A DNA stretch of 43,883 nucleotides from an uncultured Eubacterium sp. (GCA_905236225.1 CAJOPM010000045.1:1-43883); one strand, 5' to 3'; shown: positions 9,102 to 37,865, numbered from the stretch's first letter. Numbers and translations: made by a program. Notes: generated by a model from the sequence alone, not told the origin.

Positions 9102-9819
9102 AATGAAACTCTCAGAACGTCTCTTAAATGTTGCAAGTCTTGTTTCGTCAGACGGTATATTAGCTGATATTGGAACAGATCACGGATATATACCCATATA
9201 TTTGGTTCAACAAGGTAAAATTAGGGGCGCCATAGCATCAGATGTTAATATGGGGCCCTTAAATCGTGCTTTAGAAAATGTTAAATTATATAATTTGCAG
9301 GAATATATCTCGTTAAGGCTTTCCAATGGGCTTGAAAAATACAGTTTGGGTGAGGTTTCGAGCATTGTCATGGCAGGCATGGGCGCAGATCTTATGATGG
9401 ATATTATAAAAAGGGGCGAAGATATATGCCATGAAGTTTCAGAGATTATCTTGCAGCCACAGTCTAATGCAGCACAATTTAGATTGTTCCTCACAAATGA
9501 AGGATATAAGATAACAGATGAAAAGATAGTCCTTGAAGATGGCAAATATTATCCCATGATGAGAGTTTACTTCAAAGGAATACCCTCAACGATTAAACAT
9601 GAACTTAGCGAAGATGAATATTTTGGTAAGCTGCTTCTTGATAGAAAAGATCATATTCTAAAAGATTATTTGATGAAAGAAATTATAATAAACGATAATA
9701 TTACCAATAAACTTAAAGCAAACCTTAACACTAAAAACAGTGCATCTAAATCCAGATATGAAGAAGTTACTAAGTATCGTAACTTTATTGATAAAGCACT
9801 CGCACGATTTGAGGAATGA
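9094..9819 (+). CDS. trmK: tRNA (adenine22-N1)-methyltransferase
   Basis: [28 protein letters not shown] motifs; canonical position after sigA. The start may be ATG 9103. Confidence 0.9.
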
Positions 9820-17384: not shown

Positions 17385-17412
17385 GTCTCAGTCGGTCATT
17401 CGACAATCAATT

Positions 17413-17485
17413 GGGATCTTAGCTCAGCTGGGAGAGCATCTGCCTTACAAGCAGAGGGTCACAGGTTCGAGCCCTGTAGGTCCCA
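17413..17485 (+). tRNA. tRNA-Val(TAC), CCA not encoded
   Basis: Acceptor GGGATCT/AGGTCCC, D-arm AGCTCAGCTGGGAGAGC, anticodon stem TCTGC-ctTACaa-GCAGA, T-loop GTTCGAG. Confidence 0.97.
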
Positions 17486-17535
17486 TTATAGAGGCACATA
17501 CCTCTATATCAAGCGATAGATTTATCGCATCATAT

Positions 17536-17609
17536 GGCGAAGTAGCTCAGCTGGCTAGAGCACACGGTTCATACCCGTGGTGTCGAGAGTTCGAGTCTCC
17601 CCTTCGCTA
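17536..17609 (+). tRNA. tRNA-Met(CAT), elongator type, CCA not encoded
   Basis: Acceptor GGCGAAG/CTTCGCT, anticodon stem CACGG-ttCATac-CCGTG, GTTCGAG; resembles Firmicutes elongator tRNA-Met. Confidence 0.93.
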
Positions 17610-17615
17610 TTACAG

Positions 17616-33089: not shown

Positions 33090-33335
33090 TTGGATATATT
33101 AAGAGTTATTCTATATATAGTACTTATAGCAGCTTGTGCGCTTTCAGTTATTATTATCCTTATGCAGGAAGGCAAGCAGAATGGATTGGGTTCTCTTAGC
33201 GGAGCCGTAGAGGATACATACTGGACCAAGAATAAGGGAAGATCAATGGAGGGTAATCTCGTTAAGATAACCACTCTTTTAGTAGTTTTATTTATGGCAA
33301 TATCTCTTGTTCTTGAGATGGAAATTATGCAATAA
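33090..33335 (+). CDS. secG: Preprotein translocase subunit SecG
   Basis: Two TM helices flanking ILMQEGK..GLGSLSG; AGGAGG RBS; canonical secG-rnr-smpB-ssrA synteny. Confidence 0.93.
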   Translation: MDILRVILYIVLIAACALSVIIILMQEGKQNGLGSLSGAVEDTYWTKNKGRSMEGNLVKITTLLVVLFMAISLVLEMEIMQ

Positions 33336-33346
33336 TGATTAGGTAA

Positions 33347-33372
33347 GGCTGTTGTTTATATAAACAACAGCC
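33347..33372 (+). terminator. secG terminator hairpin, separated from its T-tract by an insertion
   Basis: Perfect 26-bp palindrome GGCTGTTGTTTATATAAACAACAGCC; the TTTT tract now lies at 34984-34987. Confidence 0.8.
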
Positions 33373-33419
33373 ACTCTGCTATACTACATATAGTGATATA
33401 ATTGGAGACTGCATCAGTT

Positions 33420-33599
33420 TTGAAGAAGTTGGTGAATTCATATCGCGGCTATTCGACCAGCATTGAGTTCAGTGAAGATGAGAATGTTTACATTGGGATA
33501 GTTAAGGATATCGCAGAGGGTTTTCGAGGTAGAACCATCGACGAGGCATTGAAATGATTCCACTCGGTGGTTGACCGGCATATCAATATCGGAGGATAA
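33420..33599 (+). pseudogene. HicB-like antitoxin remnant with in-frame stop
   Basis: TTG-KKLVNSYRGYSTSIEFSEDENVYIGIVKDIAEGFRGRTIDEALK*FHSVVDRHINIGG*; resembles the HicB N-terminus (YKGY...E.S.ED..F.G....G.T..E....F...VD); TGA at 33555-33557. Confidence 0.6.
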
Positions 33600-33600
33600 C

Positions 33601-33759
33601 ATGTTCGATTTCACAGATCCCGGATTCCTTGGGCTCATGGAGTCCGAAGGGATGATGGATACAAACGAAGGACTGATCTCCCGCGTTTCAAAGGTGCTGG
33701 AGAACAGCCCGAGCAATGTTAAGTCTTATAGTTTTTGTGCGGAGCATAACGATGACTGA
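33601..33759 (+). CDS. Short hypothetical ORF, possibly a truncated gene
   Basis: GGAGGA RBS before ATG 33601; 52 aa; its end overlaps the start of the next gene. Confidence 0.4.
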   Translation: MFDFTDPGFLGLMESEGMMDTNEGLISRVSKVLENSPSNVKSYSFCAEHNDD

Positions 33760-34177
33760 GAAGAAACGAAAAGCCTTGCGGAACATCGATGTGAGACTTC
33801 TGTATATTCTCCCATCTTTGCTCGCACTCGTGATTGCATTCACAGTGTTTGCGTATCAGTTCGGGAACGAGATCGTGGATCTGAAAAACACCTGCTACAC
33901 GATCTACATGAATACGCCAGAGAACAGAACGGAAGATGAAATGATCGAAGAGTTGGATGAAATGCTGGTGAATTATGATATCTCAGGCTTTACGATCAAC
34001 CTGAATACCCAGGGCGCGTATGTTTCAGACGGCAAGATTCAGCTCGACAATTCGCTGCAGATTGCGTTCATGGATATCGCAAGAGATACAGTATACAAAA
34101 TTGCAGAGGACTTGCGGGAAACTTATGGCGTGACGATCATGATACAGGAATCTGTCGTGAAGGTCTCGTATCTGTGA
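33752..34177 (+). CDS. Membrane-anchored DUF3574-like protein
   Basis: N-terminal TM, then YTIYM...GFTI...QGAY..DG....NSLQI.F....V.KIAEDL pattern; GGAG RBS before ATG 33752. Confidence 0.55.
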   Translation: MTEKKRKALRNIDVRLLYILPSLLALVIAFTVFAYQFGNEIVDLKNTCYTIYMNTPENRTEDEMIEELDEMLVNYDISGFTINLNTQGAYVSDGKIQLDNSLQIAFMDIARDTVYKIAEDLRETYGVTIMIQESVVKVSYL

Positions 34178-34188
34178 GGTCAGCGCCC

Positions 34189-34776
34189 ATGAGTTACGTT
34201 TTATGCCTGGTCATTTCAAACTGTCTGTCGTTCGTCGGCTTTTTACTGGTCGTTTACTACAGCATCCATATCAACAGAGACAGCATGCTGCGGATCAGCA
34301 TAGTCATGACGTTGCTGCAGATCACAGCGTATGTCATCATCGGCTGCTTTAATGCGGCAGTGGCTTCTCTGTTTGCGCTGCTACGGAGTTATATTTGTCT
34401 GAAATACCCGAACATAAAAGAAGGCACGCTTATCAAAACAGCGAACCTCATAGTCGGAACAGCCTTCTCGATGTGGTGCGCATATCACGGCGACGGCACA
34501 TGGGTCGCTTATCTGCCGGCGGCGAGCTTCCTGTTCTGCTCCATCGGTTATTATTTGACGAAAAGCCCCGGCGCACTGCGGATCATCAACGCATTGGATG
34601 TCCTGTTGTTCTGGATGGTGTTTGACTTTGTCAATCTGATGGTATTTTACGTTGTGGTGGATCTGTTCATCGTCACTTTCCCCATCGCAGAGCGATATGT
34701 GAATCTAGACAGAACAGATTTTGCGGAACATACGCAGAAGAGCAACCCTCAAAATAAGGCGTTCAGAGATTCATGA
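34189..34776 (+). CDS. YgjV-like inner membrane protein
   Basis: About six hydrophobic helices with a duplicated 3-TM pattern (LRISIV.../LRIINA..FW.VFD); GAGG RBS before ATG 34189 (GTG 34174 is an alternative). Confidence 0.65.
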   Translation: MSYVLCLVISNCLSFVGFLLVVYYSIHINRDSMLRISIVMTLLQITAYVIIGCFNAAVASLFALLRSYICLKYPNIKEGTLIKTANLIVGTAFSMWCAYHGDGTWVAYLPAASFLFCSIGYYLTKSPGALRIINALDVLLFWMVFDFVNLMVFYVVVDLFIVTFPIAERYVNLDRTDFAEHTQKSNPQNKAFRDS

Positions 34777-34909
34777 TATCAACTCGTTCCATACAGAGTG
34801 TGTGGCGTTGATGTCAAAGAAATAAGTAAATCCTGCTAATGTATATTGAGGAGGAAGGAACACTACGACAAAACTGATCGTAGCATTAATGTATAGTTTC
34901 TACATAAAG

Positions 34910-34964
34910 TAATACATTCCCAATCTGCCGGCACTGTATAGTCCGGCAGATTGGGAATGTATTA
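34910..34964. repeat. Perfect 22-bp inverted repeat at the right end of the insertion
   Basis: TAATACATTCCCAATCTGCCGG-(11 nt)-CCGGCAGATTGGGAATGTATTA, directly abutting the direct repeat at 34965. Confidence 0.9.
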
Positions 34965-35010
34965 GTTTATATAAACAACAGCCTTTTATTAAATTCAAGG
35001 AGATGCAAAT

Positions 35011-36942
35011 TTGGGATCAAAAGCTAAATACCTTAGAGGGGTTTTTATGGCTAATAAAAACGGATATGGATTTGTCAGCGTAGATGATGAGGATGAAGAT
35101 GTATTTATATCACCTGATAATACTCATAACGCTTTTCATATGGATAAAGTGCGAATTAAGATACTTCCTGTAAAGAGTGGACATTCCAGGGAAGGTAAGA
35201 TAGTAGCAATTGAAGAGCATGGAATTGACAAGGTAGTGGGAACCTATGTTAATAATGGGGAATACGGGTTTGTCATAGCTGATAATGCAAAAATAACAAA
35301 AGATATTTATGTTACAGCAGCTAATTCTAAGAACGCTTTAGACAATCAGAAGGTCGTAGCACTTATTACTTCATATGGAGATAAAAAACATAAGCCTGAA
35401 GGTAAAATCATAGAAATTCTTGGCGATAGGGAAACTGTGGGAGTTGATATTTCCTCTATAGCTAGAGAATACGATATAGATGAAGAATTCCCTAAAAAGG
35501 TTTTAAAACAGGCTTTGAATGTATCCTCTAAGGTTAGCCGGACGGATATAGAATGGAGAAGCGATCTTAGAGATCTTACCATGGTAACTATTGATGGTGA
35601 AGATGCTAAGGATTTAGATGATGCGGTATCTTTGACTGTTAGGGATGGATATTATTATCTGGGGGTTCATATTGCAGATGTATCAAATTACGTTCAAGAG
35701 GGAAGCGCACTTGATAAAGAAGCCCTAAAAAGAGGGACATCTGTTTATTTGACCGGAAGAGTTATTCCAATGCTTCCTAAAGAACTCTCAAATGGTATTT
35801 GCTCTTTAAATCAAGGCCAGGATAGGCTGGCACTTAGTTGCATAATGAAGATTGACAAAAATGGCGTTATTCAAGACCATGAAATCAAGGAAAGCGTAAT
35901 ATGTGTTAATCATAGGATGACATATGGAGAAGTTAATAGTATTATCTGTGGTGGTGATGACACATTAACAAAGAAATATTTTGATGTCATAGATATGCTA
36001 AAGCAGATGCATACTCTTTCGTTAATGCTTCGCCAAAACAGAGAAAAAAGAGGCGCTATTGATTTTGATTTTCCAGAGACGGATGTGATTCTTGATAATA
36101 ATGGACACCCGATAGATATAAAAGCCCACGAAAGAAATGATGCGACAAGGTTAATTGAGGATTTTATGCTTGCTGCAAATGAGACAGTCGCAGAAGAATA
36201 TTATTGGAGAAGTATTCCTTTTTTATATAGGACTCACTTAAAGCCTGATTTAGAAAAAATTGACTATCTTTCGGAAATGGTTACAAAATATGGTTGTTAT
36301 CTAAGAATTGTTAAAGATGAGATACACCCAAGACAAATACAGGAAGTTTTAAGAAAAATAAAGGGCAGTCCGCAAGAAGCTTCGCTTAGTGTTATGGTGC
36401 TTAGAGCTATGCAACAGGCTAAATATACATCCGCATGTGACGGACATTTTGCACTTGCAGCTAAATATTACTGCCATTTCACATCGCCAATCAGAAGATA
36501 TCCTGATTTGCAAATACATAGAATTATTAAAGAAGTAATAAACGGCAAATATGATGAAAAGAGAAGAAGCCATTATTCTTCAATAATTGATGATGTTGCA
36601 CAGCAATGCAGCGAATTGGAAAGAAGAGCGCAGGAAGCAGAAAGACAAAGCGTAAAACTAAAGGTTTCTGAATATATGAAGGAAAACATCGGAAAGATTT
36701 TTGATGGTGTAGTAAGCTCTGTTACATCTTTTGGAGCATATGTTCAATTGGAAAATACAGCAGAAGGACTTGTGCACATATCACAAATTATAGATGATTA
36801 TTATATATATGATGAAAAAGAAAATGCTTTGTGTGCTACTAATAGCGGACGACAAATATGCATAGGTGACAAAGTCAGAGTTGTTGTAAGCTCTGCGGAT
36901 ACTAACATGCGGACAGTTGATTTTAAATTTGTGGAGAATTAA
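35011..36942 (+). CDS. rnr: Ribonuclease R
   Basis: Cold-shock domains (GYGFV), RNB motif TIDGEDAKDLDDA, HFTSPIRRYPDL, C-terminal S1 domain. Confidence 0.96.
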   Translation: MGSKAKYLRGVFMANKNGYGFVSVDDEDEDVFISPDNTHNAFHMDKVRIKILPVKSGHSREGKIVAIEEHGIDKVVGTYVNNGEYGFVIADNAKITKDIYVTAANSKNALDNQKVVALITSYGDKKHKPEGKIIEILGDRETVGVDISSIAREYDIDEEFPKKVLKQALNVSSKVSRTDIEWRSDLRDLTMVTIDGEDAKDLDDAVSLTVRDGYYYLGVHIADVSNYVQEGSALDKEALKRGTSVYLTGRVIPMLPKELSNGICSLNQGQDRLALSCIMKIDKNGVIQDHEIKESVICVNHRMTYGEVNSIICGGDDTLTKKYFDVIDMLKQMHTLSLMLRQNREKRGAIDFDFPETDVILDNNGHPIDIKAHERNDATRLIEDFMLAANETVAEEYYWRSIPFLYRTHLKPDLEKIDYLSEMVTKYGCYLRIVKDEIHPRQIQEVLRKIKGSPQEASLSVMVLRAMQQAKYTSACDGHFALAAKYYCHFTSPIRRYPDLQIHRIIKEVINGKYDEKRRSHYSSIIDDVAQQCSELERRAQEAERQSVKLKVSEYMKENIGKIFDGVVSSVTSFGAYVQLENTAEGLVHISQIIDDYYIYDEKENALCATNSGRQICIGDKVRVVVSSADTNMRTVDFKFVEN

Positions 36943-37519: not shown

Positions 37520-37865
37520 GGGACAGTAAAGGTTTCGACGGGGGTCTTGAAGTCGGAGAAGCTATCCGCAGGATGATGCGTTAAATCTCACATTAAAATT
37601 AAACGCTAAAGATAATAATAAATTAGCAATTGCTGCCTAAGGCAGCGCTTGCCCTTCCTTTGGCACCTGCGCTTTAGGTTTTGGGTATCGACTTCGCAGG
37701 AAACGACATATGCAAAGCTTTGAGTATATGGGCGTATTATGAAGCTACCAAACCCGGGAGAATGTCAGGTTTTCGCCCGGCAGAGGGAATTTAAAACAAC
37801 CGACTATGATAGTAGAAGTACGATGGATGGGCTTTCGGACACGAGTTCGATTCTCGTCTGTTCCA
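37520..37865 (+). ncRNA. ssrA: tmRNA; tag peptide (A)AKDNNKLAIAA
   Basis: Acceptor GGGACAG/CTGTTCC with G3-U pair, GGTTTCGAC, T-arm ACGAG-TTCGATT-CTCGT, tag ORF 37605-37640; follows smpB. Confidence 0.97.

Follow-up and report, generated by a model that had tools for sequence, protein, structure and literature searches.

According to excerpts of one source (PMC12116815), a single copy of the insertion sequence ISEcp1 moves neighbouring DNA by using its true end together with an imperfect second end that has 3 to 12 matching bases, and excerpts of another (PMC3281130) describe the transposable modules of ISPme1, of the IS1380 family, as bounded by a true end and an imperfect second end. Both ISEcp1 (ISEc9) and ISPme1 are IS1380-family elements with an intact transposase and a clean duplication of 4-5 bp. 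Insertion sequences of the IS1634 family, as far as the excerpts of a 2008 survey extend (PMC2266710), make AT-rich duplications of 5-6 bp, have ends that begin with C within a poorly conserved consensus, and mostly have an incomplete YREK motif, with the R present in 5 of 32 members; for ISPfe2 an AT-rich duplication of the 5-6 bp type is recorded (PMC3281130, in excerpt). For IS1634 and IS1549 the same survey excerpts record repeats that are long and variable, from 8 to 514 bp, and for which no mechanism had been put forward by 2008 (PMC2266710). Long duplications also appear, again in excerpts, for IS1630 of Mycoplasma fermentans, an IS30-family element (19-26 bp in PMC2853133 and 16-26 bp in PMC3317919), and for restriction-modification (RM) genes inserted with a long target duplication, which lie between long direct repeats without a mobile enzyme in a set whose repeats were selected to exceed 30 bp (PMC2853133). 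Our literature search, which covered few subscription papers, found neither a single-copy capture by an IS1634-family element nor a mechanism for the long repeats of that family.

Here we describe a gene cassette between secG and rnr of an uncultured Eubacterium sp. that resembles an ISEcp1-type unit in having a true element end at one boundary (tip at 34964) and an inverted, imperfect candidate end at the other (33361-33388). It differs from ISEcp1 and ISPme1 in that the element is IS1634-like and collapsed to 55 bp, the flanking repeat is 19 bp long and ends in a microhomology with the donor, and the left tip is overwritten by host bases. The locus lies in a 43,883-nucleotide stretch (GCA_905236225.1, CAJOPM010000045.1:1-43883), hereafter the window, to which all coordinates refer; the assembly comprises 1.8 Mb in 235 contigs and is 94% complete. 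We consider it probable that the cassette was brought into the secG terminator by an IS1634-like transposase which paired the true right end with a cryptic end 1.55 kb away in the donor DNA, in the style of ISEcp1, and that the 19-bp repeat is a 6-base target plus a repair junction and not an integrase site; that the element was involved in some form we hold to be nearly certain. The insertion site has the following features:

33090-33335, + strand: secG, the upstream host gene (Pfam PF03840, E 1.8e-17)
33345-33372, no strand assigned: left remnant of the secG terminator, with hairpin retained (-16.4 kcal/mol) and U tract gone, the cargo following directly
33354-33372, + strand: left 19-bp repeat, read as the target GTTTAT (33354-33359), six host bases and the 7-nt host/donor microhomology AACAGCC (33366-33372)
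34965-34983, + strand: right 19-bp repeat, from the strand-transfer point on, with the old U tract behind it
35011-36942, + strand: rnr, the downstream host gene (Pfam RNB, S1 and CSD2)

A repeat finder recovered the two identical 19-mers (33354-33372 and 34965-34983, spacing 1611) that a preliminary description of this DNA had reported, and when as many as 3 mismatches are allowed the 1.8-Mb assembly contains no further copy, the third match being the other strand of the palindrome. When the insert is excised in silico, the space between secG and rnr again contains, as had been claimed, a 30-bp palindrome without a mismatch and a run of T after it, and the rebuilt terminator folds at about -18 to -19 kcal/mol. 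The elevated GC content of the insert was likewise reproduced (45.2% versus 36.9% for the window), with GC3 values of 0.60-0.63 in two cargo genes versus 0.26-0.32 in secG, rnr and purB. As six pairs of exact 19-bp repeats spaced at 0.5-3 kb occur in the assembly, the repeat by itself is weak proof; it is because the terminator is rebuilt and the composition shifts that the insertion of 1.6 kb of foreign DNA in the secG terminator is real. We also agree that this is a foreign cassette without an intact mobilising enzyme. Two genus relatives (G001 and G002) have secG, a terminator of other sequence and rnr, with the insert absent in both; secG is present in a third (G004), and a fourth (G003) gave no secG match. 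An empty allele of the same species was not found in GTDB, which holds one genome per species, and the flanks occurred only in run X1 among the metagenomic runs compared; the five host proteins found in protein clusters form single-member clusters.

The right copy of the hairpin has lost its folding (-0.2 kcal/mol) and the left hairpin has no U tract, the latter in line with the loss of the T-tract and of the secG terminator asserted earlier. On these grounds secG transcription is predicted to run on into the cargo, with the old terminator gone from before rnr. A terminator scan made no call in the region. In rnr itself the start codon is TTG, with a well-placed ribosome site, and about 65 N-terminal residues seen in G001 and G002 are absent; this short N-terminus is probably a trait of the species and not caused by the insertion. 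The same window also contains a tmRNA gene downstream of smpB (37520-37865) and genes for tRNA-Val and tRNA-Met (17412-17610).

The right edge of the insert is occupied by a remnant of a mobile element:

34910-34964, + strand: collapsed insertion sequence of 55 bp, with a left-end stub (tip 34910), the final six codons of the transposase with its stop (34921-34941) and a complete 28-bp right end (34937-34964)

By repeat finding and folding this segment is a hairpin with perfect 22-bp arms that touches the right repeat. A search with the insert against 401 genomes of the family yielded matches in seven others, four of them at the 55-bp hairpin, and in one of the genomes (G181) the hairpin match forms the 3' end of a gene for a DDE transposase (PF01609, with NF033559 IS1634 as the best family). 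A 21-letter pattern of the end was found in 8 of 400 further genomes, two of which are probably chance matches. Alignment of the element ends reveals a common 28-bp terminal repeat with TA first; the right end in the window stops at 34964, the base preceding the right 19-mer, agrees in motif and tip position with 17 ends from other genomes, and is identical to one of them (L033) at 28 of 28 positions. The hairpin moreover encodes QSAGTV-stop, the C-terminus of two transposases (P0129 and P0131). Judged from these comparisons, 34910-34964 is an element of ~1.8 kb collapsed to 55 bp; in a related locus (L074) an 8-nt repeat is so placed that deletion between its copies would yield the same product. 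No integrase was found in the insert, as stated earlier; the companion statement, that transposase sequence and terminal inverted repeats are missing, is wrong, given the element ends and the last six transposase codons present here. This hairpin (-40 kcal/mol) may act as a pause or stop of transcription ahead of rnr. Compared with known RNA families, it retrieved only sub-threshold microRNA models, as would any long hairpin by chance. Lone hairpins of ~50 bp made of the ends of the same element are seen in two other draft genomes (L024, 597-650; L047, 3433-3490), and collapse of the element to a hairpin may be a recurrent event.

Copies of the parent element with both ends and both flanks number ten, four more that touch a contig end having been omitted. 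Seven of these have a 6-bp duplication (TTAAAA, ATTTAT, GTTAAA, ATTAAC, GTTTAT, ATGAAT and ATCAAC), three have none and none has a longer one; the right flank of the remnant in the window, GTTTAT, is the same hexamer as the duplication in one of them (L064). In the flanks of the 17 ends, position 2 is T in all and position 5 is A in 16, so that the pattern NTNNAN fits 16 of 17 ends versus 8.8% of genome positions. When rebuilt, the seven duplicated targets fold at 0 to -4.2 kcal/mol versus -17.8 kcal/mol at the secG terminator, and none is a hairpin. This argues that the terminator was chosen for its AT-rich centre and not for its shape, and does away with the proposal of an element targeting terminator hairpins, since the element prefers AT-rich NTNNAN hexamers. 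In this it is unlike IS1630, whose original paper, by its title, reportedly describes inverted repeats as the target: it belongs to another family, has hairpins in 0 of 7 targets and normally makes a 6-bp duplication.

Coding copies with a duplication are 1761-1917 bp long (n = 6), inside the 1500-2000 bp typical of the IS1634 family, and NF033559 (IS1634) is the best family in 13 of 13 transposases, although the first of them scores 87.7 bits versus a cut-off of 100 and the best E-value, 5.3e-31, corresponds to an estimated ~108 bits for one member. No IS1380 model is among the family matches of the transposase. Across the 13 sequences the YREK motif is complete, with Y376, R379 and K390 invariant and E383 nearly so, and the putative triad of D182, D256 and E383, assigned by motif, has spacings of 74 and 127, which lie within the IS4-family range D(60-110)D(100-150)E. 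D-D-E spacing and YREK are thus common to the element and the IS4 family, the duplication being ~10 bp in the latter and 6 bp here. With IS1634, IS1549 and ISPfe2 the element shares a DDE transposase closest to NF033559, a single ORF in 1.76-1.92 kb and AT-rich 6-bp duplications, but it differs in that its ends begin with TA, not C (17 of 17), its YREK is complete and long repeats occur in 0 of 10 plain copies. Accordingly, we call it IS1634-like, its membership of that family not being a clean one given the TA ends and the complete YREK.

Relatives of the transposase amount to at least 1505 proteins at E <1e-20; it gave no match in plasmids and phages and one locus in viral contigs, where the end motif has no occurrence. 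A transposase of this kind was not found in the 94%-complete, 235-contig assembly, from which repeats may be missing. The parent element is abundant and poorly named, and captures like that at secG may be common and mistaken for att sites. Internally deleted derivatives are seen at three loci (L082, 1351-1663, 313 bp; L034, 908-1329, 422 bp; L076, 1501-2354, 854 bp). The first of these is non-coding and has its own 6-bp duplication, from which it follows that short forms move in trans and that it is a mobile MITE. The secG cassette resembles MITEs and mobile insertion cassettes in having no transposase gene and in relying on element ends as cis sites, but in those the content lies between two true ends, whereas the secG cargo lies outside the two true ends. 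The transposases (L032, 1765-3348; P0074-P0193) have C-terminal basic repeats with RGRP motifs, which we take to be AT-hook-like and which may be the reason for the AT-rich targets. In the same set the transposase reading frame stops within the right terminal repeat, and the end of the coding region pairs with the repeat into a hairpin.

Part of the region is contained in 20 metagenomic runs, of which six were compared (X1, X2, X3, X4, X6 and X15). Run X1 contains both the flanks and the cargo, the listed pieces showing 0-3 differences each at a depth of 2.5-5, and may be the source of the sequence. X2, X3 and X4 have the cargo at roughly 90-99% identity and lack the host flanks. On the right, X2 and X3 match up to 34909, the base before the left tip of the element, and continue with other sequence. 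On the left, all four runs covering that end (X2, X4, X6 and X15, from four studies) match from 33366, and the same foreign flank precedes this position in X2, X4 and X6. Gut metagenomes thus contain the cargo in a different setting. The part of the donor next to the remnant is:

34777-34909, + strand: donor intergenic tail ending in the hexamer ATAAAG, a presumed earlier insertion site in the donor, after which X2 and X3 diverge

On the left, then, donor alleles have in common with the 19-base repeat only its last 7 bases, in 4 of 4 runs, and on the right, in 2 runs, not a single one, which means that the 19-mer is not a property of the cassette and hence not an att core. An att core had been the earlier reading, in which a site-specific recombinase acting in trans would target terminator hairpins or an integrase island would have left its scar, and an exact 19-bp repeat with a palindromic start, in a tRNA-free intergenic site near smpB and tmRNA, does suit it. 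We nevertheless find it scarcely credible: cargo alleles elsewhere are without the core, the right repeat adjoins the tip of an insertion sequence, and a third copy of the 19-mer is absent from the genome. The sole tyrosine recombinase found, which beyond its matches we take to be Xer-type, sits beside lexA on another contig. The contigs of the four runs compared across both ends, which cannot show absence, contain no circle joint of the kind that the preliminary description had suggested looking for. Of a decayed integrase island there is no sign, the mobile remnant being a DDE insertion sequence.

Both flanks of the remnant, ATAAAG and GTTTAT, fit the target pattern, yet they differ. Its left junction thus represents an insertion in the donor, and its right junction an insertion in the present host. 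None of the runs compared shows a donor allele with the element adjoining the cargo, and no donor genome was identified, the six genome loci that carry the two main cargo genes being only 69-77% alike in DNA. The cargo gave no match in plasmids, phages or viral contigs, and a cargo gene was found in 0 of 4 genomes of the genus.

The window comes from a fragmented metagenome assembly, no X1 contig among those listed spans either junction, and the lone hairpins in L024 and L047 likewise sit in draft genomes; hence the joint could be an assembly effect, with a full-length element present in the cell and its repeated interior dropped, or with host and cargo misjoined. This we regard as very unlikely. 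In X1 the depth of the flanks is similar to that of the cargo (2.5-5), with 0-3 differences in each piece, and a chimera would not restore a terminator. Moreover, 8 of 10 proteins queried were found elsewhere: five host proteins (smpB, purF, purC, purB and a histidine kinase) and both cargo proteins recur letter for letter, each on 4-6 contigs, the longest in each case being a shared one of 175,042 bp, whereas the 52-aa ORF of the cargo is only on contigs of up to 927 bp. Host and cargo are thus very likely linked in a longer assembly as well, although its 175,042-bp contig may share a sample with the window. A dropped interior, for its part, would alter only the second step of the capture set out below.

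At the left junction the cargo begins within a candidate element end:

33361-33388, + strand: cryptic (look-alike) element end facing the true right end, with positions 6-28 donor-derived and the first five bases host-derived

It agrees with the right end at 17 of 28 positions (cargo mean 7.0, maximum 16). Its inner positions 13-28 (33373-33388) lie wholly in cargo, from the first cargo base on, and so do not depend on the repeat; 11 of these 16 agree, and their score of 7.4 on a matrix of the 17 ends is the best of 25 offsets. None of 3014 cargo positions scores as high, and in the rest of the window 13 of 84,206 positions do; the left stub of the remnant, whose inner motif is lost, scores -10.5 versus +7.4. 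The chance background is 1.5e-4 to 4.8e-4 per position, or after 25 offsets ~0.004 by matrix to ~0.012 by identity. Several points weaken the match: it lacks the conserved TTC (positions 8-10), by identity across positions 6-28 two cargo sites do equally well, inner scores above 7.4 arise by chance in other loci of 10-14 kb, and the register implies an offset of 7 bp, not 6 bp. Overall, these comparisons give the candidate end moderate, not overwhelming, support. In the donor alleles four of its first five bases differ from those of the window and there is no TA tip; the tip bases in the window are host sequence. AACAGCC occurs three times in the 1.55 kb of donor DNA, which puts the probability of the microhomology by chance at ~2e-3, versus 5e-5 from base composition; the two other sites in the cargo are unused and not end-like, one of them being a longer, 9-nt match nearer the element (34458).

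We propose that the element had first inserted into a donor replicon just after a two-gene operon, at ATAAAG|34910, a junction that is preserved here. Its interior would then have been lost between short repeats in the left end and in the 3' end of the transposase gene, resulting in the present 55 bp with a left stub that lacks the inner motif; we infer that this collapse preceded the capture. A transposase, probably supplied in trans, would have engaged the cryptic end (33361-33388) together with the intact right end, and transferred the latter to GTTTAT, an AT-rich hexamer in the loop region of the host terminator, in keeping with the observed tip position and target type. The cryptic end would have held the donor beside the target and, because donor alleles have no TA tip there, would not have been cleanly transferred. 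By microhomology repair following transfer of a single end, the free 3' end of the host would have copied 19 target bases and joined the donor at AACAGCC, which accounts for the junction sequences. The joint also supplies the cryptic end with a TA tip, and the cassette may now be a better substrate than it was in the donor. The evidence for this course of events comes from one locus: no second capture was found, none of three one-ended loci having a cryptic end together with the duplication to match.

The same final sequence would result if a larger unit, such as a composite transposon with a second copy of the element further to the left, had inserted with a 6-bp duplication and later lost its left part to recombination with an empty allele, through long secG homology and the 7-nt cargo microhomology, the end-like sequence being there by chance. 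The family of the parent element does make 6-bp duplications, truncated copies are common, and an IS1634-family composite transposon, Tn6097, is known from an excerpted source (PMC3281130). We consider this history unlikely all the same: it requires two events, the 30 donor bases left of the junction contain no element end, and it does not explain why the junction falls on the best end-like site, given the longer and nearer microhomology at 34458.

A variant closer to the proposed capture would have both ends, the true right one and the cryptic one, transferred normally with a 6-bp duplication, five or six bases of the left tip being then overwritten by template switching that perfected a near-palindrome and so produced the 19-bp repeat. 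It draws on the facts that the 6-bp target ends exactly at the palindrome centre (33359|33360) and that the cryptic tip is at most 1 base from the canonical position. We judge it quite unlikely, since the 7-nt match would be superfluous to insertion and hence luck (5e-5 to 2e-3), and the donor tip is not TA, versus TA in 17 of 17 true ends.

No new recombinase targeting terminators is needed at this locus, and a false lead is removed. If the cassette was captured through the cryptic end, as we prefer, the locus would be a recent single-copy gene capture, resolved to the base and with known donor junctions on both sides, by an element that belongs to neither the IS1380 nor the IS91 family. Like the RM insertions it is a gene cassette in long direct repeats, but it has an element end at one junction and non-RM cargo. 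Tentatively, one may go further and envisage that IS1634-like transposases capture neighbouring genes via a cryptic end, and that upon failed transfer the host copies the target up to a microhomology; the locus would then have preserved the way in which the long variable repeats of the IS1634/IS1549 type arise, and also a capture route in gut Firmicutes that leaves lookalikes of integrase-free att islands. This possibility at least offers a testable account of the long variable repeats of the IS1634 family, although at secG the repeat flanks captured cargo and in IS1634 and IS1549 a bare element.

The cargo comprises:

33377-33385 and 33394-33402, + strand: two candidate extended -10 promoter boxes, picked by eye and not called by a scan
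33402-33599, + strand: HicB-like antitoxin ORF (phrog_9151, E 0.0066), with a premature stop at 33555-33557 that is absent from X2 and X4
33601-33759, + strand: whole 52-aa ORF without a family match, conserved in gut metagenomes (a cluster of 9, nearly all 52 aa)
33752-34177, + strand: 141-aa protein with an N-terminal hydrophobic helix, a predicted PII/CutA-like fold and a DUF3574 lead
34189-34776, + strand: 195-aa YgjV-family inner-membrane protein (Pfam PF10688, E 9.6e-08)

The gene fragments reported earlier are borne out only for the HicB-like ORF, which is broken and whose HicB label beyond the phrog_9151 match is our assumption; the 52-aa ORF is a small gene in its entirety. Both ORFs are missing from one X2 contig (depth 2.4, with 24 bases on its short side), which skips 33394-33735, and they may have joined the donor operon later. 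There is no recognised resistance or virulence gene in the cargo. The 141-aa protein has no Pfam match; its fold is predicted at a pLDDT of 78.8, with matches to SbtB and CutA at E ~1e-4 and a DUF3574 lead of 0.85. Its gene lies next to that of the YgjV-family protein in 6 of 6 genome loci, which come from several families and varied settings, an arrangement reminiscent of the SbtA-SbtB and AmtB-GlnK pairs. The two are likely a small transporter and its putative PII-like partner. The hosts of the pair (L016-L021) are Lachnospiraceae, Ruminococcaceae, Ruminiclostridium and one Eggerthellaceae genome, and by eye three of the loci lie near apparent amino-acid ABC transporter genes. In one genome of 59% GC (L017, ~9550-9620) the pair follows what by eye is a tRNA-like gene and a low-GC stretch, and there it is likely a separate island arrival.
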